Of a DNA stretch of 64,000 nucleotides, positions 11,672 to 51,505 are shown piece by piece. This DNA is from an uncultured Eubacteriales bacterium (GTDB lineage Bacteria; Bacillota; Clostridia; Oscillospirales; CAG-382). The notes under the pieces are model-generated. The model was given only the letters and a program-made list of their open reading frames with translations, was not told where the DNA came from and searched no databases. Position 1 is the stretch's first letter, and each line of letters starts with the position of its first letter. A program made the position numbers and the translations under genes. The stretch is from positions 1,447 through 65,446 of the forward strand of contig CAKSCV010000007.1 in NCBI GenBank assembly GCA_934444645.1. The letters are read 5' to 3'.

Positions 11672-13303
11672 CTATATATTTCCGCTCTTGTCCACCGACA
11701 ATACCTTGCAGTACAAGCCTTCCTTTTCGGCTTCAAGCGGCAGACGGCAGGCGACGGTGGAGGCGATCTGATTTTCGCGCGACGGAACAAAATCCGCCTT
11801 TTTGTCTGCAAATATGCGGTAATAGCAGTGATTCGGGTCGGATACCGGTTCCCAGGTGAGCGTATGCGCCGAAACGGCTAGTCCGGCGGCACTTACCGTG
11901 TGCGTCTTTTCGAGATAATCGGTGGTGAAAAAGGTCACGCTTTCGGGTTTTAATTCATAAACGGCCGCGTTCGACTCTACAACTGCGGCAAAATCCGGCA
12001 GATCACAGAAGCGGTTGAACGGCACGTTTTTGGGGTCATATTCATACACGCGTATCGGCTTTGCGCCAAAAAGTGTGCTTTCCAATCTTACGGTGACCGG
12101 CTCCTTCCGGCGGTTGACAATGCCGACCGAAAGGGAACCGTCGCGGTTCAAGAGACCGCAGGTGCGAAGAAGCGCGTCGCATGACGTGACGTCAAGCACA
12201 TACGAATTCCGCTTGAAGAGCTTTATCATGGGTGCAACGCCGTAGTAATGGGCGCGTGCGCCGTAGTCCTTGGCGAAATCGTCCCATTTGGTGAAGCCGA
12301 ATTTGTTGTATTTGGTGTCGGTCGTACAGCTGAAAAAGCGTTCGGCTTCCGACCATTTCTCGGCATAGCTGCCGTGCTTGTTCGAATAGGCACAGGAAAA
12401 CGGGGCAGGGTGGTCGCAAAAAGACCAATAGCACAGTGCGAAAATGCCGGCATTGATGGCGGCAAACGCCATTTCGCAGAGCATTAACGCAGAAAAAGCG
12501 CATTCCTCCGGATTCTCAAAATATCGGTTGGTATCGATGACCGCACCTTCGTTAAAGCTTAGCTGACCGGCGTTTTTCTGAATGCCGACCTCGCCTAAAA
12601 TGACGCGTTTGCCGAAATTCCGGATGGCTTTGCCGACTATTTTTTCGCACTGCTCCTTAAAAAAACCGTAAAACGACAGGTCGCGGATATCGTGCGCGCG
12701 CTCATAGATGTGAACGCAATAATCCTCCGAAATATCCGCCATGTTTTCGATGGCCCAATCGACGGTTGACCAGTTTTCGTATTCCGACGCGTCGGTGGCA
12801 AGAAGTCCGATCGGAAGACCGCGCCTTTGGAAGGCGTCGTATAAATAGGTGTGGTATTTTTTGAAGGTCTCAAGGTCGTCCATCAGCACGCCCCACATGA
12901 CGCGCGACATTTCGTTGGAAAAACAGTAGTAGCGCAGGTGCCGGACATCTTTTTCAAAATAGAGATAGGCTAACCGGTCGGCAACGTCTTCAGCATAGTT
13001 TCTCATTTCGTCATCCGAAAAATGCAGCTTCCCGGCGGCGGGCGTGAGATACAGGGGCGTATCCGTCCACTTCTGCATTTGCGTATAATATTCGGCAAAT
13101 TCGTCCATGGCTTCTTTCGTCCAATCCGAAAAGCCACCAAAGGTACGCATAAAGCCGGGCGATATCTCACGGTAATTTTTGCAGATGATTTGGTTGAAAT
13201 GCTCTTTGTCCATGACGTGATACATGGTTGCGTCGTTGTTATGAAAGCCAAGTCCGCCGAAAAAGGCGGCATAGGGATTACGGCTTATGCGGATATCGGT
13301 CAT
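11672..13303 (-). CDS. Putative glycoside hydrolase (clan GH-A-like TIM barrel plus C-terminal beta-sandwich)
   Basis: 543 aa with an FSNEMS (Asn-Glu acid/base-like) motif and an ILGEVG (nucleophile-like) motif. Strong AAGGAG RBS. The family was not identified by eye. Confidence 0.5.
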   Translation of the reverse strand: MTDIRISRNPYAAFFGGLGFHNNDATMYHVMDKEHFNQIICKNYREISPGFMRTFGGFSDWTKEAMDEFAEYYTQMQKWTDTPLYLTPAAGKLHFSDDEMRNYAEDVADRLAYLYFEKDVRHLRYYCFSNEMSRVMWGVLMDDLETFKKYHTYLYDAFQRRGLPIGLLATDASEYENWSTVDWAIENMADISEDYCVHIYERAHDIRDLSFYGFFKEQCEKIVGKAIRNFGKRVILGEVGIQKNAGQLSFNEGAVIDTNRYFENPEECAFSALMLCEMAFAAINAGIFALCYWSFCDHPAPFSCAYSNKHGSYAEKWSEAERFFSCTTDTKYNKFGFTKWDDFAKDYGARAHYYGVAPMIKLFKRNSYVLDVTSCDALLRTCGLLNRDGSLSVGIVNRRKEPVTVRLESTLFGAKPIRVYEYDPKNVPFNRFCDLPDFAAVVESNAAVYELKPESVTFFTTDYLEKTHTVSAAGLAVSAHTLTWEPVSDPNHCYYRIFADKKADFVPSRENQIASTVACRLPLEAEKEGLYCKVLSVDKSGNI

Positions 13304-17842: not shown

Positions 17843-18098
17843 AACGGTTACCTCGTGAGATATTTTTGATAGGGTGCTTTTCGGTTTGCGAAAAGCACCG
17901 AAAGGCGGCGAAAAAGCACACGGAGTGTGCCGTCCCGGCAGGGACAAACTTTCCGAAAGGAAAGTTTCAAAGGCGGCATGGCCGCCGGAAGATGGCGCGA
18001 AGCGCAAAGATTTGTTGCGATAGCAACAAGGGATATGCCGTCTGCGGCGGCGAAAGGATTCAATTGGATTGCATGAGTTTGTTGTCTGTGTGTGCTGT

Positions 18099-18200
18099 TT
18101 CGAGGTTTGCAGAACCTCGAAGCTTTCTTAAAAAGGTTTTAATTGTTGCGGTGCGAAGCTGCAGCTGCGGTGGGCTGATTCGAGGTTTGCAGAACCTCGG
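18099..18200. repeat. Copy A left-arm hairpin units (two hairpins, 80-bp spacing)
   Basis: TTCGAGGTT-TGCAG-AACCTCGAA at 18099-18121, and again starting at 18179. Confidence 0.8.
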
Positions 18201-18294
18201 AGCTTCCCGGAAAGGGAACGGGTTTATTCTTTTCGCGTGTACGAAAAGAACCAAAAGTACACCAGAGGTTTGCGAACCTCTGGACTCCGGGGAC

Positions 18295-18408
18295 GATTCA
18301 AATCGCCGGTCGATACGTAATTTCCGCTAAAATAACCAGCCATCATCAGGTAACCGGTTTTGCGAAAAGCTGCAACTTCGCCGGGTATCGCCGGCAATGA
18401 TTTGAATC
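18295..18408. repeat. Long hairpin module H (copy A, left arm)
   Basis: GATTCAAATCGCCGGTCGATAC (18295-18316) pairs with GTATCGCCGGCAATGATTTGAATC (18385-18408). The stem is about 21 bp with small bulges and the loop about 68 nt. Confidence 0.75.
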
Positions 18409-18473
18409 GGTGCGACGTTCCGGCTTTACAGCACAAAATTAGAGCGAACAGCAAAAGAACAGCTGTATTCTTT

Positions 18474-18723
18474 GCAAACAGTAGGTTAAGGGTGGTGCGA
18501 ATGGGAGATGGAGGGTGGAAAAGAGTTGCTTTGGGTGGCAATTAAGGAAAGGTTTGTGCAAAAGAAAAGCTTTTGGTTTGTGAAAATGGGAATTTTTTGC
18601 AGACAGTAGGTTAAGGGTGGTTGGAATGGGCAGCGGAGGGTGGAAAAGGGGTGTTTTGGATGGTAATAAAGAAAAGTTTGTGCGAATAAACGGCTTTTTG
18701 TACGTGAAAAAGGCGGCTTTTGA
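18474..18723. repeat. Tandem duplication of about 125 bp inside the centre of copy A
   Basis: CAGTAGGTTAAGGGTGG...GGAGGGTGGAAAAG occurs at 18479 and again at 18604. Copy B has a single copy, at 24377. Confidence 0.7.
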
Positions 18724-19038
18724 GGACAGTAAAAAGTTGTTCGAATGAGCGGTGTTTTGGTTGCGAAAAAGAGCGGCTTTTGAGAGCAAAGCGTAAAGCT
18801 TTCTGTAAATGGAAACCTTTTGTTTTGCGGAAAAGGGCTGTTTTTTTCAGCTCATACAAAGCTACCCGATAAAGAAAAAACTCATTTTAGCACTGCAAAA
18901 TTCCAACTTCCCACCGCACCAAAGCTAACGAGCAGTCACAAATTTTATCCGCGACAGCCTACTATGAGCTTGCAGTACACCATCTCTTTTTCGAAAAATA
19001 ACGGTCTTGCGTTTGCACTACGGTAACCCTTTCGCACC

Positions 19039-19151
19039 GATTCAAATCATTGCCGGCGATACCCGGAAAACTTACGGTTTTCGCAAAACCGGTTACCTGA
19101 TGAATGCCGGTCACTTTAACTACAATCATGTATCGACCGGCGATTTGAATC
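19039..19151. repeat. Long hairpin module H (copy A, right arm, inverted)
   Basis: GATTCAAATCATTGCCGGCGATAC (19039-19062) pairs with GTATCGACCGGCGATTTGAATC (19130-19151). Reverse complement of the left-arm H. Confidence 0.75.
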
Positions 19152-19235
19152 GAGGTCGCAGGACGGAGTCCCGCGTGCTTTTTGGTTACTTTTTGCACGA
19201 TGCAAAAAGTGACAACTCGTATTTTCTCGCAGGAA

Positions 19236-19463
19236 GCTTCGAGGTTCTGCAAACCTCGATTCAGCTCACCGCAATGGCAGCTTCGCACCGCAACAATTAA
19301 AACCTTTTTAAGGGAGCTCCGAGGTTTTGTAAACCTCAAATCAGCCCACCGCAGTGATATCTTCGCACCACAACAATTAAAAACTTTGTAAGAGAGCTTC
19401 GAGGTTCTGCAAACCTCGAATCAGCACACCGCAGCCGCAGCTTCGTACAAACCAATTAAAACC
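19236..19463. repeat. Three tandem 80-bp hairpin units (copy A right arm)
   Basis: Units start at 19236, 19316 and 19396. Each begins GCTYCGAGGTTYTGYAAACCTCRA and ends CAACAATTAAAACC. Confidence 0.85.
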
Positions 19464-19510
19464 TCTCCGGAACTTTTCCATCCTTATTTGTAAGGCACAA
19501 AAAGCAGGAC

Positions 19511-19533
19511 AAAAAAGCCCTCCCTGCCGGGAG
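19511..19533 (-). terminator. Possible intrinsic terminator after the ParE-like gene
   Basis: On the minus strand: CTCCC-GGCA-GGGAG followed by GGCTTTTTT. The stem is short and is nested in a larger GCAGGAC/GTCCTGC pairing. Confidence 0.4.
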
Positions 19534-19556
19534 TTCGCCGTCCTGCGGCGGCATTT

Positions 19557-21692
19557 TCAGACATCGGCAAGATCAATATATTCCGCACCGTGCGCCGCAA
19601 TGTAAGCTTTTCGGGCAATAATGTCGTCGCCAAGCAGCGTGTTGAACATGATATACGTTGCCTTTTCGTCCTCCGGCCCGATGCGGATCAAACGGCGCGA
19701 AGCCGGATTCATGGTCGTTTGGTTCATCATGTCCGGTTCGTTTTCACCAAGACCCTTGGAACGCATGATCTTGTACGGCGCGTCGCCAAGCTTTTTTAAG
19801 ATGTCGAGTTTTTCTTTTTCGTTGTAGGCAAACTGCGTGCCGAGCTTTTTCGATTCGATTTCATATAACGGCGATTCCGCTATATACACGCGTCCCTCGC
19901 GGATAAGCGTCGGCAGCAGCCGGTAAAACATGGTCAAAATCAGCGTGCGGATCTGATAGCCGTCCTCGTCGGCATCGGTACAGATGATGATCTTGCTCCA
20001 TTTGAGCGAACCGATGTCAAACTGCGACAGATTCTTGTCCTTGCCTTTCGAGGTGCCAAGCTCCACGCCGCAGCCGATGACCTTCAGAAGATCCACAATG
20101 ATATCGCTCTTGAAAATTTTGTCATAGCTGCTCTTTAGGCAGTTGAGCGTCTTGCCGCGCACCGGCATGACCGCCTGATAATCCGGATTGCGCGCAAGCT
20201 TGACTGAACCGAGTGCGCTGTCGCCCTCCACAATGTACAATTCGCGTTTGGCGGCATCCTTTGAGCGGCAGTTCACGAATTTTTCCACACGGTTGGCAAT
20301 ATCAATGTTCTTTTCGAGCTTCTTTTTGATGTTGACACGGGCGCTTTCGGCGTTTTCGCGGCTTCGCTTGTTGATAAGCACCTGGGCGGCGGCTTTTTCG
20401 GCTTGCTTGGGATTTTCTGCGAAGAAAACCTCAAGCGAGTGTAAGAAAAAGTCGGTCATAGCCTCCGCGATAAACGTGTTGGTGATAGCTTTTTTGGTCT
20501 GATTTTCGTAGCTGGTGCGCGTGGAGTGGGAATTGACGATGAAAACAAGGCAGTCCTCGATATCGCCATAGGTGACCTTACTCTCGTTTTTGGCATATTT
20601 GTTGTTGTTTCGCAAATAGATATCAAACGCCTTGACAAAGGCCGAACGTGTCGCTTTATCCGGTGAGCCGCCATGCTCAAGAAAGCTGGAATTGTGGTAA
20701 TATTCCACACGGCTTAGTATGTTGGAAAAACAGAAAACCATTTCGATTTTCAACTTATATTCGTTCATGTCTCCGCGGTCTTTGCCGCGGCATTCGGTCT
20801 TGAAATAGGCCGGAACGGTGAGTGCATACGTGCGTGCGGCGTTTTCCTCGGCTTGGTCGTCGGTCGAAGCTTCGTCGGCTTCATCCGCTTCGTCGGCTTC
20901 GTCGTTTTCGTCGGTTTCTGCCGCTTGTTCCTCTGCTTCTTCGGCTTCTTCGGACGGATTATAGCCGCCGTCGGCACTGATGATCTCATTCATGTAATCG
21001 ACGATGCCGCGTTTGTATAAATATTCGCGCTTTTCGTGTGTGCCGTCCTCGTTTTCGAAATCCAGCGTGATGGTCACGCCTTCATTGACCACCGCCTGCT
21101 TTTTGACGGTTTCATCAAAAAAGACAAACGGGACGTTGATATCGGTAAAGACCGCAAGATCCGGCTTCCATTCGACCACTGTGCCCGTGCGGCGGCGTAC
21201 CGGCTCTTCGACAATGAGGTCGGTGGCCGGATAACCCTTTTCAAAACGGATGGAGGACTTGTTTTCCTTTGTATAGCTGGTGACCGTCATGTATTCCGAA
21301 GCAAACTGTGTGGCGCACGCACCAAGCCCGTTCGTGCCGAGGGAATATTCGTAGGCTTCGCCGTCGTCGTTGTCGTATTTGCCGCCGGCATATAATTCAC
21401 AGTATACCAAATCCCAGTTGTATCGTCCCTCGCGCTCATTCCAGCCGAGCGGAACGCCGCGTCCGAAGTCCTCGACCTTGATCGAATGATCCTTGCGGAC
21501 CTCGACATTGATGCGGCTGCCGTAGCCTTCGCGCGCTTCGTCGAGGGCGTTGGCGAGAATTTCGAGAAACGTGTGGCCGCAGCCGTCAAGACCGTCCGAA
21601 CCGAAAATAACGGCCGGACGCAGACGAACCCTGTCTGGGCCTTTTAGGGAGGTAATGCTGTCATTTCCGTAATTTTTTTGTTCTTTTGCCAT
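19557..21692 (-). CDS. Type IIA DNA topoisomerase subunit B (ParE/GyrB-like) with an acidic low-complexity insert
   Basis: GHKL ATPase N-terminus (FLEILANALDEAREGYG, EDFGRGVP, GTNGLGA). Toprim ELYIVEGDSALGS and TDADEDGYQIRTL. Acidic stretch EEAEEAEEQAAETDENDEADEADEADEASTDDQAEE at about aa 247-285. Confidence 0.8.
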   Translation of the reverse strand: MAKEQKNYGNDSITSLKGPDRVRLRPAVIFGSDGLDGCGHTFLEILANALDEAREGYGSRINVEVRKDHSIKVEDFGRGVPLGWNEREGRYNWDLVYCELYAGGKYDNDDGEAYEYSLGTNGLGACATQFASEYMTVTSYTKENKSSIRFEKGYPATDLIVEEPVRRRTGTVVEWKPDLAVFTDINVPFVFFDETVKKQAVVNEGVTITLDFENEDGTHEKREYLYKRGIVDYMNEIISADGGYNPSEEAEEAEEQAAETDENDEADEADEADEASTDDQAEENAARTYALTVPAYFKTECRGKDRGDMNEYKLKIEMVFCFSNILSRVEYYHNSSFLEHGGSPDKATRSAFVKAFDIYLRNNNKYAKNESKVTYGDIEDCLVFIVNSHSTRTSYENQTKKAITNTFIAEAMTDFFLHSLEVFFAENPKQAEKAAAQVLINKRSRENAESARVNIKKKLEKNIDIANRVEKFVNCRSKDAAKRELYIVEGDSALGSVKLARNPDYQAVMPVRGKTLNCLKSSYDKIFKSDIIVDLLKVIGCGVELGTSKGKDKNLSQFDIGSLKWSKIIICTDADEDGYQIRTLILTMFYRLLPTLIREGRVYIAESPLYEIESKKLGTQFAYNEKEKLDILKKLGDAPYKIMRSKGLGENEPDMMNQTTMNPASRRLIRIGPEDEKATYIMFNTLLGDDIIARKAYIAAHGAEYIDLADV

Positions 21693-22342: not shown

Positions 22343-23722
22343 TTGACACAACCGAGAACCGAAAACAAAATGGGCGTTATGCCCGTTAACCGCCTGCTTG
22401 TTTCCATGGCAGCACCGATGATGATTTCCATGCTTGTACAGGCTTTATACAACGTAGTGGACACCATGTTCGTGTCCCGGCTCGGCAAAGATGCGCTCAC
22501 CGCTTTGTCGCTTGCTTTTTCGGTACAGAACCTCATGATTGCCGTCGCCGTCGGTACGGGCGTCGGTATTAACGCACTGCTTTCGCGCAGCCTTGGCGAA
22601 AAAGAATTTGAAAGAGCCGGAAAAACGGCTGAAAACGGCCTGTTTTTGGCAGGTATCAACTATATACTGTTTCTCATAGTCGGCATTTTCTTCTCCCGCT
22701 CGTATTTTTCGTTGTTCGGCGCGTCGGAGACGGTGACGGAATATGGCGCACAGTATCTTTCGATTTGCTGCATTTTGTCGTTCGGCGTGTTCGGTCAGAT
22801 TACATTTGAACGGATTTTGCAGTCGGTCGGCAAGACCATGTTAACCATGGTCACGCAGCTAATCGGTGCGGTCCTCAATATCATTCTCGACCCGATCATG
22901 ATTTACGGCTTACTTGGTTTTCCGAAAATGGGCGTTGCCGGTGCGGCACTTGCAACGGTCATCGGTCAGATCATCGCGTTTATCGCCGGAATTATCCTCA
23001 ATCACAAGTTCAACCACGAGGTGCGCTTAAATATGCGTTCGTTCCGCCCGGATGGCGCGATCATCAAAAACATTTATGCAGTCGGCATTCCGTCGATCAT
23101 CATGGGCTCGATCGGTTCGGTCATGACGGTGGGCATCAATCAGATCGTGCGTCTTTGCGGCGCGGTGGCAGATACGGCACAGGCAGTGTTCGGCGTGTAT
23201 TTCAAGCTGCAGAGCTTTGTGTTCATGCCGGTATTTGGACTAAATAACGGCATGGTACCGATTATTGCCTATAATTTCGGCGCAAAAAAGCGTGACCGGC
23301 TGACCAAAACCATCCAGCTCAGCGTTGTGTATGCCTGTATTTTGATGTTTATCGGCTTTTTGCTGTTCCAATTTATGCCGGAAACGCTGTTACGTATTTT
23401 CGATACCGGAAACGATGATATGGTCGGCATTATCGAGGTCGGTGTGCCGGCGCTGCGCCGCATCAGCTACAGCTTTGTGCTTGCCGGGTTCTGTATTGTG
23501 ATTTTATCGGTCTTCCAGGCACTCGGACACGGGTTTCTCAGTCTTGGCGTTTCGGCCATGCGTCAGCTTGGCGTTCTGCTGCCGGTCGCATTTATTCTTG
23601 CGGCTACGACGCATTCGGTGGAAACGGTGTGGCTTGCGTTCCCGATTGCGGAAATTGCGTCGGTGACGCTGTCGGCGTTATGTCTTGTGCATGTATACAA
23701 AAAAGATATCAGGAATTTGTGA
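22343..23722 (+). CDS. MATE family efflux transporter
   Basis: 12-TM protein with N-terminal PVNRLLVSMAAPMMISMLVQALYNVVDTMFV. The ORF-track start is TTG; an alternative ATG lies at 22370. Confidence 0.85.
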   Translation: MTQPRTENKMGVMPVNRLLVSMAAPMMISMLVQALYNVVDTMFVSRLGKDALTALSLAFSVQNLMIAVAVGTGVGINALLSRSLGEKEFERAGKTAENGLFLAGINYILFLIVGIFFSRSYFSLFGASETVTEYGAQYLSICCILSFGVFGQITFERILQSVGKTMLTMVTQLIGAVLNIILDPIMIYGLLGFPKMGVAGAALATVIGQIIAFIAGIILNHKFNHEVRLNMRSFRPDGAIIKNIYAVGIPSIIMGSIGSVMTVGINQIVRLCGAVADTAQAVFGVYFKLQSFVFMPVFGLNNGMVPIIAYNFGAKKRDRLTKTIQLSVVYACILMFIGFLLFQFMPETLLRIFDTGNDDMVGIIEVGVPALRRISYSFVLAGFCIVILSVFQALGHGFLSLGVSAMRQLGVLLPVAFILAATTHSVETVWLAFPIAEIASVTLSALCLVHVYKKDIRNL

Positions 23723-24192
23723 GAAATGCCGGCAAAAGCTTTGCTTTTGCCGGCATTTCTGCTTGCGGAGCAAGCATATTCACGCGAAGCGTGTTATATG
23801 CCCCGGCAGGGGCAAGACTTCCCGTGCAAACGGGAAGTTCCGGAGGCGGCTTTGCCGCCGGAAGAAGCCGCGAAGCGGCAACAGAAAAATGCCGCCGAAA
23901 GGCGGCGAAGAAGCACACGGAGTGTGCCGCCCCGGCAGGGACTCTGCCGTAAGGGGGCAAAAGGATTTAATTGGGTTAGTGCGAATTTGTTGTCTGTGTG
24001 CGCTGATTCAAGGTTTGCGTAACCTCGAGGCTTTCGAAAGGTTTTAATTGTTGCGGTGCAAAGCTGCGGCTGCGGCGCGCTGATTCGAGGTTTGCAGAAC
24101 CTCGGAGCTCCTTGCAAAGGGATACGGGTTGTTACTTTTTGCATCGTGCAAAAAGTAACCAAAAAGCACGCGGGACTCCGTCCTGCGACCTC

Positions 24193-24306
24193 GATTCAAA
24201 TCGCCGGTCGATACGTGATTGCTGCGAAAATGATCGGCGTTCATCAGGTAACCGGTTTTGCGAAAAGCTGCAACTTTGCCGGGTATCGCCGGCAATGATT
24301 TGAATC
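24193..24306. repeat. Long hairpin module H (copy B, left arm)
   Basis: GATTCAAATCGCCGGTCGATAC (24193-24214) pairs with GTATCGCCGGCAATGATTTGAATC (24283-24306). Confidence 0.75.
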
Positions 24307-25000
24307 GGTGCGACGCTCCGGCTTTACAGCACAAAATTAGAGCGGAGATCAAAAGAATAGCTGTATTCTTTGCAGACAGTAGGTTAAGGGTGGTTGGAAT
24401 GGGAAGCGGAGGGTGGAAAAGGGGTGTTTTGGATAGAAACATGGAAAGGTTTGTGCGAATAAAAGGCTTTTTGCACGTAAAAAGGCGGCTTTTGAGAACA
24501 GTAAAAAGTCGTTCGAACGAGCGGTGTTTTGGTTGCGAAAACGAGAGGTTTTTGAGGGCGGTTTGTAAGCTTTCTGTAAATGGAAAGATTTTGGTATGCG
24601 AAAAAGGCAGATTTTCAGCTCATGCAAAGCAACCCGATAAAGAAAAAACTTTTTTTCAGCGCACAACGACACCAATTTCCCACTGCAACAAAACTAACGT
24701 GCAACTGCAAATTTCATCCGCGACAACCTACTGTGAGCTTGCAGTACACCTTTTCTTTTTCGGAAAACAACGGTCTTGCGTCTGCACTACGGTAACCCTT
24801 TCGCACCGATTCAAAGCCTTTTCGCTGCCGTTTTGCAGACAAAACCGGTTTCGGCACGAGCCGTCGGGAATTTTTGCAAAATCACTTCCGGCAGAGCTTT
24901 GAATCGTCCCCGGAGTCCAGAGGTTCGCAAACCTCTGGCGTGCTTTTTGATTCTTTTTGCACGACGCAAAAAGAATGTAAAAACGTCCCCTTTGCAGGGA

Positions 25001-25226
25001 GCATCGAGGTTTTCCAAACCTCGAATCAGCACACCGCAGTGACATCTTCGCACCGCAACAATTAAAACCTTTCAAGGAAGCTCCGAGGTTCGCAAACCTC
25101 GAATCAGCACACCGTAGCCGCAGCTTCGCACCGCAACAATTAAAACCTTTTTAAGGAAGCTTCGAGGTTCTGCAAACCTCGAATCAGCGCACAAAGATAA
25201 CAACCTCGCGCAATCCAATTAAATCC
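25001..25226. repeat. Three tandem 79-bp hairpin units (copy B right arm); the last is the terminal variant
   Basis: Units start at 25001, 25080 and 25159. The terminal unit ends GCGCAATCCAATTAAATCC. Confidence 0.85.
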
Positions 25227-25442
25227 TTTCGCCGCCCTTGGCGGCTTTTCTTTCCGACTTGCGGCGGTGTCCCTGCAGGGACGGCACACCCCGTGTGCAT
25301 TTCGCCGCTCCCAGCGGCAGTTTCCGGCATTTCCGGCCGGAAACTTTTTTCTGCTTTTTGATGACCCAAAAAGCAGCTTGCGCCGACAAAAAAGAAACGG
25401 CTTTTTTGTCGGCTTATTTTTGTGCAATTTACAAATAAACTC

Positions 25443-25471
25443 TTGCAATTTGTTATGAGTTTTGCTATAAT
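25443..25471 (+). promoter_or_regulatory. Sigma-70-type promoter for pyrH-frr-uppS-cdsA
   Basis: TTGCAA, 17 nt spacer, TATAAT, about 20 bp outside the repeat element. Confidence 0.55.
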
Positions 25472-25555
25472 AGCTTAAACTATGGATATGAATGCCTTTT
25501 CTTGCTGCAAAACCGTAATCTTTTGCTATCATATCCCGAAAGGACTGGAACTCCA

Positions 25556-36579: not shown

Positions 36580-36655
36580 AGGGGAATAGCTCAGCTGGTA
36601 GAGCAGCGGTCTCCAAAACCGCGTGCCGAGGGTTCGAATCCTTCTTCCCCTGCCA
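36580..36655 (+). tRNA. tRNA-Trp (anticodon CCA)
   Basis: Acceptor AGGGGAA/TTCCCCT, anticodon loop CTCCAAA, T arm GGTTCGAATCC, encoded CCA. Confidence 0.9.
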
Positions 36656-36693
36656 GTTTTCCGGAAATGCTCGGAAAGCTTATCAAATCATCC

Positions 36694-36769
36694 GCGGATT
36701 TAGCTCATTTGGTAGAGCGCGACCTTGCCAAGGTCGAGGTGGCGGGTTCGAGCCCCGTAATCCGCTCCA
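36694..36769 (+). tRNA. tRNA-Gly (anticodon GCC)
   Basis: Cloverleaf folded by hand. Anticodon loop TTGCCAA, T arm GGTTCGAGCCC, encoded CCA. Confidence 0.9.
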
Positions 36770-36867
36770 GCGGCAATGTGCCGCAGCAAAACACAAAAAT
36801 GTGTGCGTGAAAAATTCACGGTGCGCAAACAGATTTGACCGTATTGTCCCAAGCGCGTTTTATTCCC

Positions 36868-36943
36868 GGAGGGTTAGCTCAGCTGGGAGAGCATCTGCCT
36901 TACAAGCAGAGGGTCACAGGTTCGAGCCCTGTACCCTCCACCA
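36868..36943 (+). tRNA. tRNA-Val (anticodon TAC)
   Basis: Acceptor GGAGGGT/ACCCTCC, anticodon loop CTTACAA, encoded CCA. Confidence 0.9.
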
Positions 36944-36947
36944 TTAC

Positions 36948-37024
36948 GGTCCGGTAGTTCAGTTGGTTAGAACGCCAGCCTGTCACGCTGGAGGTCGTGG
37001 GTTCGAGCCCCATCCGGATCGCCA
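36948..37024 (+). tRNA. tRNA-Asp (anticodon GTC)
   Basis: GGTCCGGTAGTTCAGTTGGTTAGAAC..., anticodon loop CTGTCAC, encoded CCA. Lies 4 nt after tRNA-Val. Confidence 0.9.
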
Positions 37025-37058
37025 CTTTATTTGAACAGCGGCATGTGTTTCTGTTTAC

Positions 37059-37134
37059 GCCTCTGTAGCTCAGTTGGTAGAGCAGGGGACTGAAAATCCC
37101 CGTGTCGTTGGTTCAATTCCGACCGGAGGCACCA
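37059..37134 (+). tRNA. tRNA-Phe (anticodon GAA)
   Basis: Anticodon loop CTGAAAA, T arm GGTTCAATTCC, encoded CCA. Confidence 0.9.
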
Positions 37135-37163
37135 GCCGGTATCGAAATAAGGTGCGGCTACCT

Positions 37164-37239
37164 GCGGATTTAGCTCATTTGGTAGAGCGCGACCTTGCCA
37201 AGGTCGAGGTGGCGGGTTCGAGCCCCGTAATCCGCTCCA
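37164..37239 (+). tRNA. tRNA-Gly (anticodon GCC), second identical copy
   Basis: Identical to 36694-36769. Confidence 0.9.
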
Positions 37240-37321
37240 ATGGCGAAAGCCATAGCAATACGTGCTGCATACCGAGCAGCAAACAAAAAGAACAGCGTTT
37301 CCCGAGACGCAGACGTGAGAT

Positions 37322-37396
<75 letters not shown>

Positions 37397-37411
37397 TTCT
37401 TTTTTATGTAT

Positions 37412-37487
37412 GCCTCTGTAGCTCAGTTGGTAGAGCAGGGGACTGAAAATCCCCGTGTCGTTGGTTCAATTCCGACCGGAGGCACCA
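37412..37487 (+). tRNA. tRNA-Phe (anticodon GAA), second identical copy
   Basis: Identical to 37059-37134. Confidence 0.9.
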
Positions 37488-37530
37488 CCCGTTTGGGTTG
37501 TGTTATCATGCATCCGAAACGGACAAGTAC

Positions 37531-37607
37531 GGTCCGGTAGTTCAGTTGGTTAGAACGCCAGCCTGTCACGCTGGAGGTCGTGGGTTCGAGCCCCATCCGG
37601 ATCGCCA
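37531..37607 (+). tRNA. tRNA-Asp (anticodon GTC), second identical copy
   Basis: Identical to 36948-37024. Confidence 0.9.
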
Positions 37608-37638
37608 GCCTTCGGGCAAAACAAAATATTCTGCCTAT

Positions 37639-37714
<76 letters not shown>

Positions 37715-43431: not shown

Positions 43432-44937
43432 ATGAATCTTGTTACCATCATGAATTTTGTCCGCGGTGTGGAGCCGCGCAACCCGAACTTGGATCTGTTG
43501 GAACCGGTGGTCAATCAGATCGCCTTAAATAAAGCCTATGGTTTTGACAACACATTTCTATTGCAGTATGATGCACTCATCGACCCGAAATTCCAAGAGT
43601 TGTTTTCGGCAGAGCGCGACCAACACATGGAACTCGGCATTTGGTTCGAGGTGGTGCAGCCGCTTGTCGAAAAGGTCGGCATCCAATGGCGCGGCAGACC
43701 CGGCTATGCGTGGGATTGGTATGTGAATCCGGGTTTCCTTCCGGCGTATACGCATGACGAAAAAATCGCGATGATCGATGAATTCATGGAGACATTCCGC
43801 GCGATCTTCGGTGCATATCCGCAGTCGGTCGGCTCGTGGCTGCTCGATATCGATTCGGTTCGCTACATGACGGAAAAATATGCTATCCGCTATTTCGGCA
43901 TCTGCCGCGAGCAGTTGGCGGTGGACGCTTACACGCTCTGGGGCGGTCCGTATAACCAACCGTATTACCCGTCGGTACACAATATCCTTTGCCCGGCGCA
44001 GAACGCTGAAAATCAGGTAAACGCACCGGTGTTCCGGCTTCTCGGCATTGAGCCGATCCGCGGCTACAATGAAAAACGGTATGCCAAGGATCCTGAATGC
44101 TATGGCTGTGCGACCATGGAGCCGTTCTGGAAATACGGCCAAAACAAGGACTATATGGAATGGTTCTTCAAGACCTATTTCGACAACGAAAACTTAGGGC
44201 TTGCCTATACGCAGATCGGTCAAGAGAACAGCTTCGGCTGGAAGGGCATGAAGGATGGTCTTACGCTGCAGCTGGCACTTGTCAAACGCTATGCCGACCA
44301 AGGCAAAATCCGGGTCGTCAAGACAAGCGAAGCCGGCAGGCTGTTTGCCGAGGCAAATACGCTTACGCCGCCGGCGGCACTTTGTGCCGACACCGATCCG
44401 GTCGGTCAAAACGGCTACAAATCGTTCTGGTACACCTCGAAAAATTACCGCGCCAACGTCTTTTTTGAAGGCGAAACGCTGTATTTCCGGGATATTCAGA
44501 AGTTTGACGAACGCTATACCGAACGCTATCTCGATGAGCCGTGCTTAAAATGGGATGCGGTGTACGACAACCTGCCGGTCGCGGATGAACGCGGTTGGAG
44601 CTTTGAAAAGGATTCGCACGATGCCGGTTTGGATTTTGACGGAGCGTTTGTGTTTGAGGGCGTCGAACGGGACGGCAGCGCACTTGCGGTTACGGCACGT
44701 GCCGCAGACGGTAAAAAAATCACGATTCGTTTGTCCGAATCCGAAATCACCGTTTCGGGCGGCGCGGTATTGCGGTGGCGTTTCGGCAAGTTTGCGGATT
44801 TTGCGGCAGACAAGGATGGCGTAAGCTTTACGCATAACGGCTTTTCCTATCGTGTCGGCGTGAAAGGCGTTCTTACGGCCGAGCAAAAGGATCTGATACT
44901 AACCGGTGAAGATATCACGCTTGCAATGGCGGAATAA
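43432..44937 (+). CDS. Hypothetical protein, possibly a carbohydrate-processing enzyme
   Basis: 501-aa ORF with normal soluble-protein composition and its own promoter and terminator. No signal peptide. The family was not identified by eye. Confidence 0.55.
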   Translation: MNLVTIMNFVRGVEPRNPNLDLLEPVVNQIALNKAYGFDNTFLLQYDALIDPKFQELFSAERDQHMELGIWFEVVQPLVEKVGIQWRGRPGYAWDWYVNPGFLPAYTHDEKIAMIDEFMETFRAIFGAYPQSVGSWLLDIDSVRYMTEKYAIRYFGICREQLAVDAYTLWGGPYNQPYYPSVHNILCPAQNAENQVNAPVFRLLGIEPIRGYNEKRYAKDPECYGCATMEPFWKYGQNKDYMEWFFKTYFDNENLGLAYTQIGQENSFGWKGMKDGLTLQLALVKRYADQGKIRVVKTSEAGRLFAEANTLTPPAALCADTDPVGQNGYKSFWYTSKNYRANVFFEGETLYFRDIQKFDERYTERYLDEPCLKWDAVYDNLPVADERGWSFEKDSHDAGLDFDGAFVFEGVERDGSALAVTARAADGKKITIRLSESEITVSGGAVLRWRFGKFADFAADKDGVSFTHNGFSYRVGVKGVLTAEQKDLILTGEDITLAMAE

Positions 44938-48283: not shown

Positions 48284-49138
48284 TTAACCCTGACGCCGCA
48301 TTGCCAAAACTTCGCGAAGTCTTGCCAATTTGCAGGCGCGCATATAGGCAAGCGTGAAAAACATCTGCGGCGAAAGTCCGGCATACAGATCGTTTTCGTG
48401 ACGGTTCGGCTTGCCATGGTGTGCATTTAATTCGAAGGTGAGCGGCCCTGCATACGCATGTTCGTCAAGGCGCGCGACAAAGTTCTCCCAATCGCCGATC
48501 CCGTCAAACGGCAGCAAATGCAGATCGTCGATCCAAGTGGTCTTTCCGGAAAAATCGCGGATGCCGAGGTTGTCGTTGATGTGCGTGGCGATCAAGCGGT
48601 CACCGTACAGCGAGAGCAGATCCTTGCTGTGGTTATAGCACATTTCGTGGCCGGTGTCGAGGCAAAAGCCGACGTTGTCTAAGTCGGCAAGCGATTCCAT
48701 AAGCGCCGCCAGATATTCTTCTCCCTCGGTGTTTTCGAGTGCCACCTTAACGCCGAGCTTCCCGGCTTCTTCGGAGACCTTCCGGAAGCTTTCAAGCCCA
48801 TATGCGTTCGGCGTGTGGTCCTCAAAGCCGATAAAGGCGTGCATGACCACAATCGGCACGTCGTGCGCGGCGGCGTCGCGGATGCATTCGAGCAGCTCGT
48901 TTGCTGCACCTTGATACTCCGGCGTCCACATTTCGGCGGCGCGTGTAAACGGTGCGTGAACCGATTGATAGTGCATCCCAAGCTTGTCGGCAAGCGTGCG
49001 CGGCTCGTCTAAACAGCCGGATTTATTCCAATTCGTAAAAAAGCCGTCAAAGCCGGCGGCCTTGGCAATTTGCAGCTCTTCGGCAAAGGGAATGTCGAAA
49101 ATTCCGCCGAGCGCGATGCAGAAATGGTTGTTCCACAT
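48284..49138 (-). CDS. Xylose isomerase-like TIM-barrel protein (sugar phosphate isomerase/epimerase or AP endonuclease 2 superfamily)
   Basis: Metal-ligand-like motifs ALENTEGEE, CLDTGHE, THINDN. Stop lies 4 nt before the addB start. Confidence 0.7.
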   Translation of the reverse strand: MWNNHFCIALGGIFDIPFAEELQIAKAAGFDGFFTNWNKSGCLDEPRTLADKLGMHYQSVHAPFTRAAEMWTPEYQGAANELLECIRDAAAHDVPIVVMHAFIGFEDHTPNAYGLESFRKVSEEAGKLGVKVALENTEGEEYLAALMESLADLDNVGFCLDTGHEMCYNHSKDLLSLYGDRLIATHINDNLGIRDFSGKTTWIDDLHLLPFDGIGDWENFVARLDEHAYAGPLTFELNAHHGKPNRHENDLYAGLSPQMFFTLAYMRACKLARLREVLAMRRQG

Positions 49139-49162
49139 AAAAACTCTTCCTTATTATTATGG

Positions 49163-49495
49163 TTAACGATAAAAGGCGTAGTTGCCGATGAGCGGCAGCG
49201 GCTCGGTTTTGTCGTTTGCGGCGTTCACAATGCCGATGATCATGAGTACAAACACAAAAAGGCCGCTGACAACCGAGAACAGATAGGGCACTATCGCACC
49301 GGCATACGGAATCCAGCCGAGGGTGAAATTTAATACGCGCGTGAAAATCGAGCAGGCTGCGGAAACAATGGTGAGCAGCATTCCCTGACCGCAATGAAAA
49401 CGCACGGTGGGATTATCTTTTTCCGGGATGAACAGGCTGATGAGAAATAGAAGCGGAATGTAGGACAGAATGTGATATAGTTTATTCTTTTGCAT
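49163..49495 (-). CDS. DUF4870-like small membrane protein
   Basis: 110 aa with LSYIPLLFLISLF...RFHCGQGMLL, typical of this family. Confidence 0.6.
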   Translation of the reverse strand: MQKNKLYHILSYIPLLFLISLFIPEKDNPTVRFHCGQGMLLTIVSAACSIFTRVLNFTLGWIPYAGAIVPYLFSVVSGLFVFVLMIIGIVNAANDKTEPLPLIGNYAFYR

Positions 49496-49636
49496 AAGTG
49501 CCTCCTGGTTCGACGGATTTGTTTTTCTACCTTATATATTATAGCAACCGGAGGGATATCTGTCAATACGAATTTGTGCGTTTGCCGGTTTTGTACGGCG
49601 GATTTGCGGTGAAAAGGTATACGTGAGCATTTTTAA

Positions 49637-49670
49637 GAAAATGTACGTTCCCTTTTACCTTTTGTGTTGA
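49637..49670. repeat. Left inverted repeat bounding the low-GC cassette
   Basis: The reverse complement TCAACACAAAAGGTAAAAGGGAACGTACATTTTC matches 50863-50898. The first 17 nt are identical and the remainder is degenerate. Confidence 0.6.
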
Positions 49671-49780
49671 TATAAGCCTATCCGTCGAACCCTTCGTCGA
49701 TTCGACGGAACTCTAAGTATTGGAAAAGGAGCAAGGTGTATTTCAACCTTGCTCCTATCGGTCAGTATGTGCTATTTAGT

Positions 49781-50521
49781 TCAAGAATTAGAATTATTTA
49801 TGACATCACCAGGTCCCGCGTTGTCAGGCAGGTCATTTGAAGGTGTACTTGGCGTTACTATCTTGTCATAGATTGCTTTGGTCTGCTCGGCTAAATCACA
49901 ATACATTGTGTAGCTATGTGCAGACACTCCTGTATGCCACAAATGAAAGTTTTCCTTGAAAATGGTCTGGAGTTTTTCTTCTGTATAATCCTTTTTCAAA
50001 TCGTCATTTATAACCAAACCATTTTGGATGAACAAATCAAGTAATTCTTTTGCAGGCATTTCGGATAATTCTTCGTAAGTATATGCACCGAATGCTTTAT
50101 TAGGAGTAGCTTCCTTATTGTTGGAGTTCGTCTGTTCCAATATCTCAAAATAGCATTGAGGGGCATCCTCGGCTTTCATATAGTAAGTAACCCCATCAAC
50201 TTTTGTCGTTGTCAGACCATTTTTTACAACAGTTCCGTCTGCATACTCGATTTCCACAGAAATGCTATTGCTGCCAGGAGCCAAAACTTTGTCATCGGCT
50301 TTTTCGTCAATCGTAAATGAGCCAAGCCAACTTGTAATCTCTGCCATGTATTTGCTCGGCACTTCAAATCCTTTTCCATCGCTGGGAAGGGTGTGGAAAG
50401 TGATACGAACAATATTTTCTGTTTCAAAAACAGGTTTTGCCTTGTCAACTTTGTTTGTAGAACAGCCAACCAGGCCCAACACACAGACCAATGCCAACAA
50501 TAATGCTATATATTTTTTCAT
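49781..50521 (-). CDS. Lipoprotein of unknown function in a low-GC islet
   Basis: MKKYIALLLALVCVLGLVGCSTNK lipobox and a GGAGGTAA RBS. Codon usage is visibly AT-richer than in neighbouring genes. Confidence 0.75.
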   Translation of the reverse strand: MKKYIALLLALVCVLGLVGCSTNKVDKAKPVFETENIVRITFHTLPSDGKGFEVPSKYMAEITSWLGSFTIDEKADDKVLAPGSNSISVEIEYADGTVVKNGLTTTKVDGVTYYMKAEDAPQCYFEILEQTNSNNKEATPNKAFGAYTYEELSEMPAKELLDLFIQNGLVINDDLKKDYTEEKLQTIFKENFHLWHTGVSAHSYTMYCDLAEQTKAIYDKIVTPSTPSNDLPDNAGPGDVINNSNS

Positions 50522-50594
50522 ACGGATTACCTCCTTCGTTGTTATATGCCTTTGTATACATAGACGTAAAAAATCTCAAAAAGTTCCATGTTTT

Positions 50595-50705
50595 CTATAC
50601 TATACAATACTTGTCTTTTACTATGTTTTGTGGCGTGATAACTTCCGAGTTGGAATATTTTGAAATGCCTGTTATGGCTTGTAGCTTGTCGAAAATATCT
50701 TCCAT
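50595..50705 (-). CDS. Candidate 36-aa small ORF upstream of the lipoprotein gene
   Basis: ATG at 50705, 8 nt after AGGAGGG. Translation MEDIFDKLQAITGISKYSNSEVITPQNIVKDKYCIV with a TAG stop. Below the ORF-track cutoff and has no homology support. Confidence 0.3.
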   Translation of the reverse strand: MEDIFDKLQAITGISKYSNSEVITPQNIVKDKYCIV

Positions 50706-50777
50706 AGGAACACCCTCCTAAAAATCAATTTTCTTTTGAATACTGATTGGCTCAAAACCCAGACAACTTCAAAAGAA

Positions 50778-50808
50778 AAGAGGATACCCTAAAAATTAGG
50801 GTATCCTC
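50778..50808 (-). terminator. Perfect 14-bp stem-loop, terminator-like on the minus strand
   Basis: AGAGGATACCCTAA-AAA-TTAGGGTATCCTCT, followed on the minus strand by TTTCTTTTG. Confidence 0.55.
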
Positions 50809-50862
50809 TCGAAAATTAGGTATCTTGGCACGCTTTTGGTGAAATCGACGGAGTTTTTACCA

Positions 50863-50898
50863 TCAACACAAAAGGTAAAGGGGACAATGTACAAAATC
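50863..50898. repeat. Right inverted repeat bounding the low-GC cassette
   Basis: TCAACACAAAAGGTAAAGGGGACAATGTACAAAATC, the partner of 49637-49670. Confidence 0.6.
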
Positions 50899-50900
50899 TA

Positions 50901-50929
50901 TTGCCAAATCGGTATTTCTGTGATATAAT
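50901..50929 (+). promoter_or_regulatory. S10 operon promoter P1 (extended -10)
   Basis: TTGCCA, 17 nt spacer, TGaTATAAT. Confidence 0.55.
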
Positions 50930-50999
50930 AGAAATTTTATGCATTTTGCGGCGCAGAGCGGAGTTCACACAAAAGTTACAACTAAATACGCCAAACCTA

Positions 51000-51028
51000 T
51001 TGCAAAACCCGTCCTTGTATGATACAAT
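51000..51028 (+). promoter_or_regulatory. S10 operon promoter P2 (extended -10)
   Basis: TTGCAA, 17 nt spacer, TGaTACAAT. Confidence 0.55.
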
Positions 51029-51034
51029 ATACAA

Positions 51035-51505
51035 GCTTGATGTGCGATGAAACGGGAGGTTGCGGTGTTTACACCGGGAATTTCCGTGGAGTATGTCCGA
51101 TAAACGGGCGACAGCGAATACTGAACCGAAGCGCATGGTTGCGATCTCAGGGCGTTCCTTCAAGCAGGTGCGTTTCTGCTATCGCCGTGGCAAGAGAAAT
51201 TTTGCCGAAAGCAGTGCCGGCGCTAAGGCGTATCTTTCTTAAAACATCGGTCGCGGAACCGTCGGTGAATTTCACCGAAAGGCCGTGCAATATGTGCCGT
51301 GTGGCTCTTTATGGGCTTGCGGCGTAAGAATGGTAAGCTGCCCGAATTCCCCTCGGTTTGAGGTCGAATCGGGTTTTTCATTCGGGAAGCATTAGAAACA
51401 CCCGGACGCGTGTTCGTATTTCACTGTGCCGCATTTAAAACGGTTCCTGCGTTAAATCAAGCGTAAACGTGCGCAGGACGAAAAATTTTAAAGGAGGCAG
51501 AAAAA
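51035..51505 (+). promoter_or_regulatory. Long structured 5' leader, or an independent ncRNA, upstream of rpsJ, with a terminator/attenuator-like hairpin at 51341-51379
   Basis: No credible ORF or RBS. Many local hairpins. CCCGAATT...GAATCGGG plus T5 at 51341-51379, with an alternative perfect pairing of CCCGAAT (51341-47) to ATTCGGG (51380-86). Confidence 0.4.

Follow-up and report, generated by a model that had tools for sequence, protein, structure and literature searches.

Between the MATE gene and pyrH, in a 64,000-nt stretch of contig CAKSCV010000007.1 from an uncultured Eubacteriales bacterium (the window, whose coordinates are used for all positions), lies a non-coding, ∼80% two-fold symmetric element that we refer to as copy B (23761-25380). 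With the balance of evidence tipped only a little in its favor, we take copy B to belong to a hitherto undescribed family of modular, mirror-symmetric repeats that carry no genes: repeats that would insert rarely, beside terminator hairpins, by means of an enzyme supplied in trans and acting on folded single strands, that would be reshaped frequently by recombination, and that would, as a probable side effect, block transcription. At the level of sequence, comparison with relatives demonstrates that the family is dispersed, that it has been acquired at a site where a sister species has none, and that it is very unstable between strains.

Copy B occupies the gap between the stop codon of the MATE gene (22343-23722; Pfam MatE in relatives) and the ATG of pyrH at 25553, and the gap holds no credible gene. 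Both of its boundaries are host sequence. On the left stand the MATE stop (23722) and the MATE terminator, a perfect 18-bp stem (23722-23760, + strand) that is kept in all relatives and that in one of them (L034) shows two changes, both yielding G:T on the + strand. On the right stand a host terminator (25382-25413) and a pyrH promoter-like site (25443-25471), which together (25382-25471, + strand) are conserved in the relatives L030, L034 and L039 and are not part of the element.

A preliminary description of this DNA had presented copy B as a nearly two-fold symmetric sequence filling the whole of this gap, and both statements are borne out. A repeat finder returned nested inverted arms at 23951-24033 / 25157-25239 (83 nt; 75% identical ungapped, ∼84% with one gap), 24036-24121 / 24988-25073 (86 nt, 86%) and 24037-24095 / 25092-25150 (59 nt, 93%), with further inner inverted pairs about a common axis near 24555. 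Global alignment of the left half with the reverse-complemented right half gave 500 matches and 118 mismatches (553 and 135 for the second copy in the window, copy A), and a 21-mer from one of the repeated units occurs 7 times against 0.01 expected; the symmetry is thus far above chance. It is nonetheless imperfect: there are two units on the left against three on the right, and a ∼250-nt center (24385-24640) is not palindromic. The same description had given the ends as simple terminal inverted repeats of ∼50 bp. The ends are indeed inverted, but what was seen is the outermost of two (left) or three (right) tandem units of 78-80 nt; the core coordinates then proposed are right to within 10 bases, GGATTTAATTGG beginning at 23963 and not 23953. 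The only long open reading frame (ORF) in copy B (24258-24902, 214 amino acids, TTG start) was rejected as a gene: it has no match in Pfam and no counterpart among the ORFs of copy A, where the frame is not kept, in agreement with the earlier view of the element as non-coding.

Copies A and B and the other copies compared share a single plan. From each end inward there are 4-10 short GC hairpins with A-rich linkers, one to three units, a set of hairpin modules and a cassette. The units are 78-80 nt long and of two types, a terminal type beginning AAAGGATTTAATTKG and an internal type beginning AAAGGTTTTAATTGTTGCGGTGCGAAG, both bearing the hairpin TTCGAGGTT-loop-AACCTCGRA. The modules, two or three in each half, are a CCC/GGG hairpin, a 12-13-bp AT-rich hairpin and one that is replaceable, either CCAGAGGTTTGCGAACCTCTGG or another hairpin in the same place. 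The cassette, of ∼100 nt and closed by GATTCAAA...TTTGAATC, exists as two sequence types, each able to occupy either side. At the center, G-rich and nearly C-free repeats of 41/124 nt are followed by a C-rich conserved segment, and this part is not palindromic. The core measures 1.0-1.45 kb, or 1.2-1.7 kb with the hairpin strings, and carries no genes. The order of the hairpin modules is shuffled between copies. In the window hairpin strings are found solely beside copies A, B and C, and they are missing, along with the core, from the empty site described below; we therefore regard them as part of the element. The earlier observation that conservation runs beyond the terminus, through a GCCGCC-loop-GGCGGC hairpin, is thereby extended: on both sides the repeated DNA runs on into strings of short GC hairpins.

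In copy B the plan is realized as follows (+ strand, unless stated). The left hairpin string (23761-23959) consists of ∼9 short GC hairpins with A-rich linkers and has GGA, GAA, GGCA, GCAA and GAAA loops on the + strand; from 23816 onward it is absent in strain L034. The left arm (23960-24115) is made up of a terminal unit, AAAGGATTTAATTGG..., at 23960-24036 and an internal unit, AAAGGTTTTAATTGTTGCGGTGC..., at 24037-24115, each with the shared hairpin. Next (24116-24192) come a small CCC/GGG hairpin, an AT-rich 13-bp hairpin (24131-24159) and the variable hairpin module, here of ‘X’ type where other copies have the alternative named above. A type-1 cassette (24193-24313), a segment of ∼100 nt, is closed by the stem GATTCAAATC...GATTTGAATC, which is kept through double (compensatory) changes in L030/L036. 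The central non-palindromic region (24340-24640) is G-rich and almost C-free on the + strand, with repeats of ∼124 nt and a 41-nt sub-period: there is one such repeat in copy B and there are two in copy A, while in copies L007 and L042 they are shortened. The conserved segment ‘S2’ (24612-24815), C-rich and G-poor, served for typing variants. The type-2 cassette GATTCAAAG...CTTTGAATC (24808-24906) is a diverged mirror partner of the type-1 cassette. It is followed (24917-25000) by a CCAGAGGTTCGCAAACCTCTGG hairpin and T-run, terminator-like and outward-facing, an AT-rich hairpin (24944-24982) and a CCC/GGG hairpin. The right arm (24992-25229, - strand) holds three inverted 78-80-nt units, the outermost ending ...CCAATTAAATCCTTT at 25229, and the right hairpin string (25230-25380, - strand), which is kept in L034, reads on the + strand as GC hairpins followed by T-runs, again terminator-like and outward.

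Copy A (17900-19556, + strand) separates the stop codon of parE (19557-19559) from the terminator hairpin of that gene (17873-17899). Its hairpin string (17900-18052) is followed by a core (18053-19466) with two left and three right units and two central repeats, and by a short right flank. The matching terminus previously noted in copies A and C is present at 18053-18105 (left end of A) and 79-131 (C). Copy A had also been described as lacking a terminus on its right side; this proved incorrect, for three units are present there, the last being of internal type and ending CCAATTAAAACCTCT at 19452-19466. Copy C (1-290, strand not assigned) shows only one end in the window, with units to 131 and then a hairpin string to ∼290; in a conspecific strain the contig breaks at this site. 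A solute-binding protein gene adjoins copy C, and in the metagenome-assembled genome UMGS882 (L001:360-3530) two tandem paralogues of it (73% amino acid identity) adjoin an element end, in the opposite orientation relative to that end.

Among species-representative genomes the 21-mer matched only one, the human-gut assembly ‘uncultured Clostridiales bacterium UMGS882’, on at least 10 contigs; a metagenome scan returned mainly the metagenome from which UMGS882 derives and a few short contigs. We take the family to be restricted to a narrow group of uncultured Clostridia from the gut. Many matches lie at contig ends, and the repeat breaks assemblies. Together with the three copies in the window, the UMGS882 contigs support the earlier claim of multiple, intergenic copies. 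Identity to A and B is 75-90% for the complete UMGS882 copies (L002, L004, L006, L007 and L010). Each is situated between long ORFs, and none has flanks co-linear with any site in the window; at L001 one flanking gene is homologous to a gene of the window, but is placed and oriented differently with respect to the element end. Since the UMGS882 copies occupy sites that are not orthologous to those of the window, the family has dispersed to different intergenic, terminator-proximal sites. With these copies added the termini still align. Terminal units (AAAGGATTTAATTKG...) are inverted at both ends in copy B, L004, L006 and L007, with an exception at one end in two cases: the left of L010, where no terminal-type unit was found, and the right of copy A.

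The history of individual sites was followed in relatives, that is, in contigs recovered through homologues of the MATE protein. Nucleotide identity to the window, measured over parE to MATE, is 99.9% for L027, ∼98% for L039/L040 and likewise for L034 (L035 has the same gene layout), 92.4% for L042, 86% for L030/L036, 76% for L033 and L045, and 69% for L037. At site A (parE-mnmE) the gap holds a full copy in the window (gap length 1.7 kb), L040 (1466 bp) and L042 (1223 bp). In L030/L036 it is 56 bp and contains merely the parE terminator hairpin abutting the stop codon. The site is thus empty at 86% identity and filled at 92-100%, from which it follows that the element was acquired once the 86% lineage had branched off. 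The inserted DNA has the stop codon directly on one side and the foot of the terminator hairpin directly on the other, and in this one clean comparison of a filled with an empty site the junctions of copy A show no repeated bases, that is, no target-site duplication.

Site B (MATE-pyrH) carries a copy in L039 and also in L030/L036, where it is strongly diverged and rearranged; in L042 the contig ends ∼450 bp past MATE, within element-matching sequence. The L030/L036 copies (L030:5423-6690 and L036:8423-9728) are without left units and have a duplicated right-arm fragment (the AT-rich hairpin and part of a unit) abutting the pyrH promoter; the double changes in their cassette stems are A-T to G-C and G-C to A-T. 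In L033 (5607-6611; MATE protein 84% identical) MATE is followed by an IstB/DnaA-like ATPase gene of the IS21 helper family and not by the element and pyrH.

Strains ∼98% identical in flanking genes differ in three ways. Firstly, in L034/L035, which come from two samples, site A measures only 162 bp and site B only 419 bp. The sequence read was that of L034, where hairpin strings alone are kept at both sites, and L035 agrees in gene layout and gap sizes; relative to L034 the window carries 17965-19519 and 23816-25230 in addition. Given the tree, these short sites are secondary losses of the core. An assembly artefact was judged unlikely: gene layout and gap sizes are equal in the two samples, and the junction k-mers are absent from full copies. 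The L034 site A junction (L034:4140-4190, also in L035) is a perfect 20-bp palindrome, CCGGCAGGGACAAACTTTCC-GAAA-GGAAAGTTTGTCCCTGCCGG, which is what recombination between mirrored hairpins would leave; the junction could be the footprint of a deletion or an excision, or a landing pad. Secondly, in copy B of L039 the inner 0.9 kb (L039:5587-6504, against window 24170-24995) has the opposite orientation and is 83% identical, the arms and flanks being 96-97% identical, and its S2 segment is closer to the UMGS882 copy L010 (88%) than to copy B of the window (81%). The low identity and the affinity of S2 argue for replacement by another family member through the arms, and the arrangement suggests exchange of cassettes between copies. 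A simple flip by an invertase was rejected on the same 83%; an invertible promoter switch (inverton) was likewise set aside, there being in addition no internal promoter-like site and no recombinase among the window ORFs tested. Thirdly, copy A of L040 has one left unit against two in the window and different flank hairpins, with an inner segment 100% identical to that of the window.

A comparison of orthologous sites for presence or absence had been named as a check in the preliminary description, and polymorphism of this kind is found: site A is empty in L030/L036, and the core is missing at both sites in L034/L035. Much of the variation between strains (deletion of the core, inversion or replacement of the inner segment, changes in unit number) is better explained by recombination within and between copies than by transposition.

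The hairpins of the element are polar, and the two halves are mirror images in this respect. On the inward strand (the strand read from each element end toward the center) the loops of 151 flank hairpins, from 28 distinct flanks, are GNA or GNNA 63 times and the complementary TNC or TNNC 3 times. They are mainly GAA, GGCA, GGA, GCAA and GAAA, usually with a C-G closing pair. GAA, GGA or GGCA account for 43 of the 63 G...A loops, and GAA and GGA for about two thirds of all-purine triloops, so that the bias exceeds mere purine richness. The units show the same polarity: their internal type carries GCGAAGC on the inward strand, and in 47 distinct unit hairpins the non-Watson-Crick pairs on that strand are G:T 26 times versus A:C twice. 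Folding predictions likewise favor the inward strand of each half over its complement, the advantage being 30-75 kcal/mol under RNA parameters and 13-22 kcal/mol under DNA parameters. GCGNAGC/GCGNNAGC sequences and C-G-closed d(GNA) loops form extraordinarily stable, nuclease-resistant hairpins in single-stranded DNA (PMC13037366, PMC3201870); GAA, GGA and GGCA are stable loop types of DNA and not of RNA (PMC13037366, PMC3201870), and C-GNA-G / C-GNNA-G mini-hairpins are found at the priming sites of phage G4 and RSF1010 ssiA (PMC13037366). The mirror-image strand asymmetry of the hairpin strings thus points to a single-stranded form of the element.

Read in the outward direction, these hairpins have T-runs behind them and are scored as intrinsic terminators. 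The region of copy B contains 13 terminator-like sites against 4.1 expected, most of them facing outward, and since the insertion at site A parE has been followed by a hairpin and T-run supplied by the element. No promoter-like site was found inside the element or at its outer ends. The outward arrays probably stop transcription that leaves or crosses the element, as a side effect.

Taken together, these observations support a repeat family that is non-coding and non-autonomous and has spread to new intergenic sites. We propose that new copies arise rarely, through an enzyme that would be supplied in trans and whose substrate would be a folded single strand, not duplex inverted repeats. We infer single-strand action from the lack of a target-site duplication, the insertion at the foot of a hairpin and the strand polarity of the hairpins in both loops and G:T wobbles. 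Once established, copies would be reshaped mainly by homologous recombination, both with other copies and between their own inverted arms, and their outward hairpin-plus-T-run arrays would block transcription as a side effect.

Several points weigh against this proposal. A longer copy with a transposase between the same termini, as envisaged in the preliminary description, did not come to light: no transposase or recombinase partner was found in ∼90 kb around copies (the ORFs up to 8 kb away from 12 UMGS882/OIWM01 loci) or among 20 ORFs of the window, and phage, plasmid and viral collections yielded no autonomous relative with these ends. When the ORFs near the UMGS882 copies were compared with one another in search of a transposase-like gene common to them, only spurious in-element frames and ordinary paralogues emerged. 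The missing duplication and the insertion at the hairpin foot come from a single filled/empty comparison. Copies from related strains are not independent, and the ratios of 63:3 and 26:2 overstate the number of events. The polarity could reflect RNA rather than single-stranded DNA, GAAA and GCAA being good RNA tetraloops too, or could have arisen incidentally, through selection for T-runs that follow hairpins on the other strand. Lastly, most of the polymorphism observed needs no transposition.

A stronger form of the proposal, which we put forward tentatively and hold to be unlikely, is that the family represents a prokaryotic class of foldback element that moves as folded single-stranded DNA, with the mirror-image, nuclease-resistant C-GNA-G arrays serving a trans-acting enzyme, of HUH type or another, as signals for recognition or protection, and the hairpin-only sites of L034 as excision footprints or landing pads.

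It is slightly less likely again that this is not a mobile element at all: a recombination-prone palindromic repeat would then have spread and shrunk without a dedicated enzyme, solely through homologous or ectopic recombination, template switching and the instability of palindromes. All changes within the 98% group are deletions, inversion/replacement or changes in module copy number, as such a process would produce; the shuffled module order and the perfect palindrome at the L034 junction are also in keeping with it, as is the left junction of copy A, where an arm of the host terminator (AAAAGCACC) resembles the outer hairpin of the element (AAAATGCCGCC). Against this explanation stand the occurrence of the repeat at unrelated intergenic loci in two species without co-duplication of flanking DNA, the arrival of a complete 1.66-kb unit between stop codon and terminator at a site of 56 bp in the sister species, and the recurrence in all copies of ends made of one kind of 78-80-nt unit.

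Marginally lower still we would place a structured non-coding RNA locus, in which each half encodes an RNA of ∼700-800 nt directed toward the center (two convergent genes), or the whole element is a stabilizer in a read-through 3′-untranslated region. The superior folding of the inward strand, its wobble pairs and purine loops (GAAA and GCAA are classic RNA tetraloops) and the cassette stems kept by double changes would all be expected of an RNA, and copies A and B each have an upstream gene directed into them in the ‘sense’ orientation. Yet good terminators stand between MATE and copy B, the ‘sense’ of the right flank of B lies on a strand into which no gene reads, and, as noted above, there is no promoter-like site. 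Rfam 15, searched at the gathering score and at E≤1, returned no family, only chance-level matches in the hairpin strings (16-19 bits, E 0.3-0.8). The 43 of 63 loops discussed above are of the types stable as DNA and not as RNA (PMC13037366, PMC3201870), and the element is dispensable in conspecific strains. Analysis of two cassette types with RNAalifold supported the outer stem alone, the inner variable parts being without convincing covariation. A single long RNA hairpin formed between the two arms was rejected: mismatches between the arms are G:T 155 times and A:C 152 times, so neither strand is favored and the long-range pairing shows no wobble bias.

The foldback-type MITE (miniature inverted-repeat transposable element) suggested in the preliminary description is apt in so far as the element is non-coding, multi-copy and polymorphic; the lack of a target-site duplication, the lack of a transposase partner in the DNA examined and a length two to three times that usual for MITEs tell against it. 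An ordinary MITE, derived from a DDE insertion sequence (IS) whose autonomous partner lies outside the sampled DNA and whose target duplication is hidden, we consider improbable. Its terminal inverted units and intergenic positions fit, and the presence of several subterminal repeats, more at one end than at the other, recalls Tn7- and Mu-type ends. However, the copy A junctions are without duplication, the whole 78-80-nt unit is conserved together with its strand-polar hairpin rather than as short protein-binding sites, the inserted DNA includes variable hairpin strings outside the units, and the size is 1.0-1.7 kb. Most improbable of all is a replication signal on a satellite-like element, with mini-hairpin arrays as single-strand initiation (ssi, priming) signals and central repeats as iterons in the manner of RSF1010 oriV (ssiA/ssiB) or the phage G4 origin: the mini-hairpins known from the G4 origin and ssiA (PMC13037366), their position on opposite strands in the two halves and the central 41/124-nt repeats recall such a signal, but no rep or primase gene is associated, there are many chromosomal copies, the central repeats are dispensable (varying from less than one to two copies), and plasmid, phage and viral collections gave no match (copy B by blastn against phage and plasmid collections: none; pattern scans of viral contigs: nothing, or chance 17-mers only).

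Among known systems the best reading is that the family is closest in kind to REPs (repetitive extragenic palindromes) and their higher arrangements, BIMEs and REPINs, which are mobilized by the RAYT (TnpA-REP) transposase. They share with our element clusters of short, GC-rich extragenic palindromes with conserved linkers, a mosaic and variable order of modules, inverted pairs that give larger hairpins, a position after genes near terminators, the lack of a target duplication, a presumed recognition of the single strand and possible terminator or insulator effects (PMC3116915, PMC8266576, PMC3733652). The strings of 4-10 hairpins that flank our element are likewise 20-40-nt, GC-rich imperfect palindromes clustered between genes. 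The GTAG/CGTC tag of REPs stands at the feet of 16 of the 151 hairpins (either strand), no more than scattered, and the feet are A-rich linkers. Unlike in REP, BIME and REPIN, hairpins form only the fringe of a core of ∼1.0-1.45 kb with its own 78-80-nt units, cassettes and central repeats; a genome appears to hold tens of copies where REPs number hundreds; the hosts belong to a Clostridia lineage; and no RAYT gene, in those systems a single-copy Y1 HUH gene flanked by the repeats, was identified in the window or in the 8-kb loci around copies.

The resemblance to bacterial MITEs such as Correia, RUP and MITEAba12 extends to the terminal inverted repeats, the lack of coding capacity, the many intergenic copies and the presence/absence polymorphism between strains. 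MITEs are usually under ∼600 bp; our element differs in addition in having ends that are tandem arrays of long structured units, in being two-fold symmetric as a whole and not at its ends alone, in the absence of a target-site duplication (one clean comparison) and in that no cognate IS was found in the DNA examined. Eukaryotic foldback elements (Drosophila FB, Galileo) are similar in their very long inverted terminal regions of variable-number tandem sub-repeats, their short non-repeated center and their high rates of recombination, inversion and deletion (PMC2775673). They make target duplications and use P- or MULE-type transposases, and the likeness is one of form only. Pneumococcal BOX elements (boxA-boxB(n)-boxC) are also modular and non-coding, with a variable number of internal modules and strong predicted folding; they measure 100-300 bp, are not two-fold symmetric and lack flanking hairpin strings. 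In ssi signals (phage G4 origin, RSF1010 ssiA/ssiB) C-GNA-G / C-GNNA-G mini-hairpins have a strand-specific function, and those of RSF1010 lie on opposite strands (PMC13037366); they are, however, single sites of plasmid or phage origins served by dedicated primases, whereas here arrays of 5-10 hairpins stand at both ends of a dispersed chromosomal repeat. IS200/IS605-type elements and their derivatives have no inverted ends and make no duplication, bear subterminal hairpins on one active strand and insert 3′ of a fixed tetra- or pentanucleotide. The absence of duplication and the strand-polar hairpins would fit such elements; in ours the ends are inverted, which mirrors the polarity, and only one insertion bears on the target.

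Non-autonomous repeats of bacteria (REP, MITE, BOX) are usually short, and most of them have no known mover. What sets the present family apart is its large size, strict modularity and mirror symmetry, together with a fringe of arrays of the DNA mini-hairpin type that is the most stable known, with a clear strand polarity. It varies among strains 98% identical in flanking genes, being present, deleted in its core or swapped in its inner segment; this turnover and the mirror-image arrays are its most unusual properties. Were a single-strand mechanism to be true, it would extend spread of the REP/RAYT type to Clostridia and to kilobase-sized elements, and would provide a natural case of mini-hairpin DNA in arrays. 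There are also practical consequences: the repeats break metagenome assemblies of the lineage, many contigs ending inside copies, and terminator-like arrays are placed beside essential operons (pyrH-frr-uppS-cdsA, parE and mnmE).

Elsewhere in the window, the parE/gyrB-like gene contains a short 9/18-nt tandem repeat (GCTTCGTCG) at 20869-20926. Two long ORFs, at 11672-13303 (- strand, 543 amino acids) and 43432-44937 (+ strand, 501 amino acids), have no Pfam family at E≤0.001. The interval 49000-51000 is low in G+C (0.38-0.44, against ∼0.51 elsewhere) and includes a 246-amino-acid ORF (49781-50521, minus strand) without a Pfam match and a strong 14-bp terminator hairpin (50779-50809). An S10-Clostridia ribosomal protein leader (Rfam RF03136, 45 bits) precedes a ribosomal protein operon at 51038-51111 and supports the Clostridia origin of the window. 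Ten tRNA genes (Trp, Gly, Val, Asp, Phe, Gly, Cys, Phe, Asp, Thr) are clustered at 36580-37714, with near-identical duplicates of Gly-GCC, Asp-GTC and Phe-GAA.

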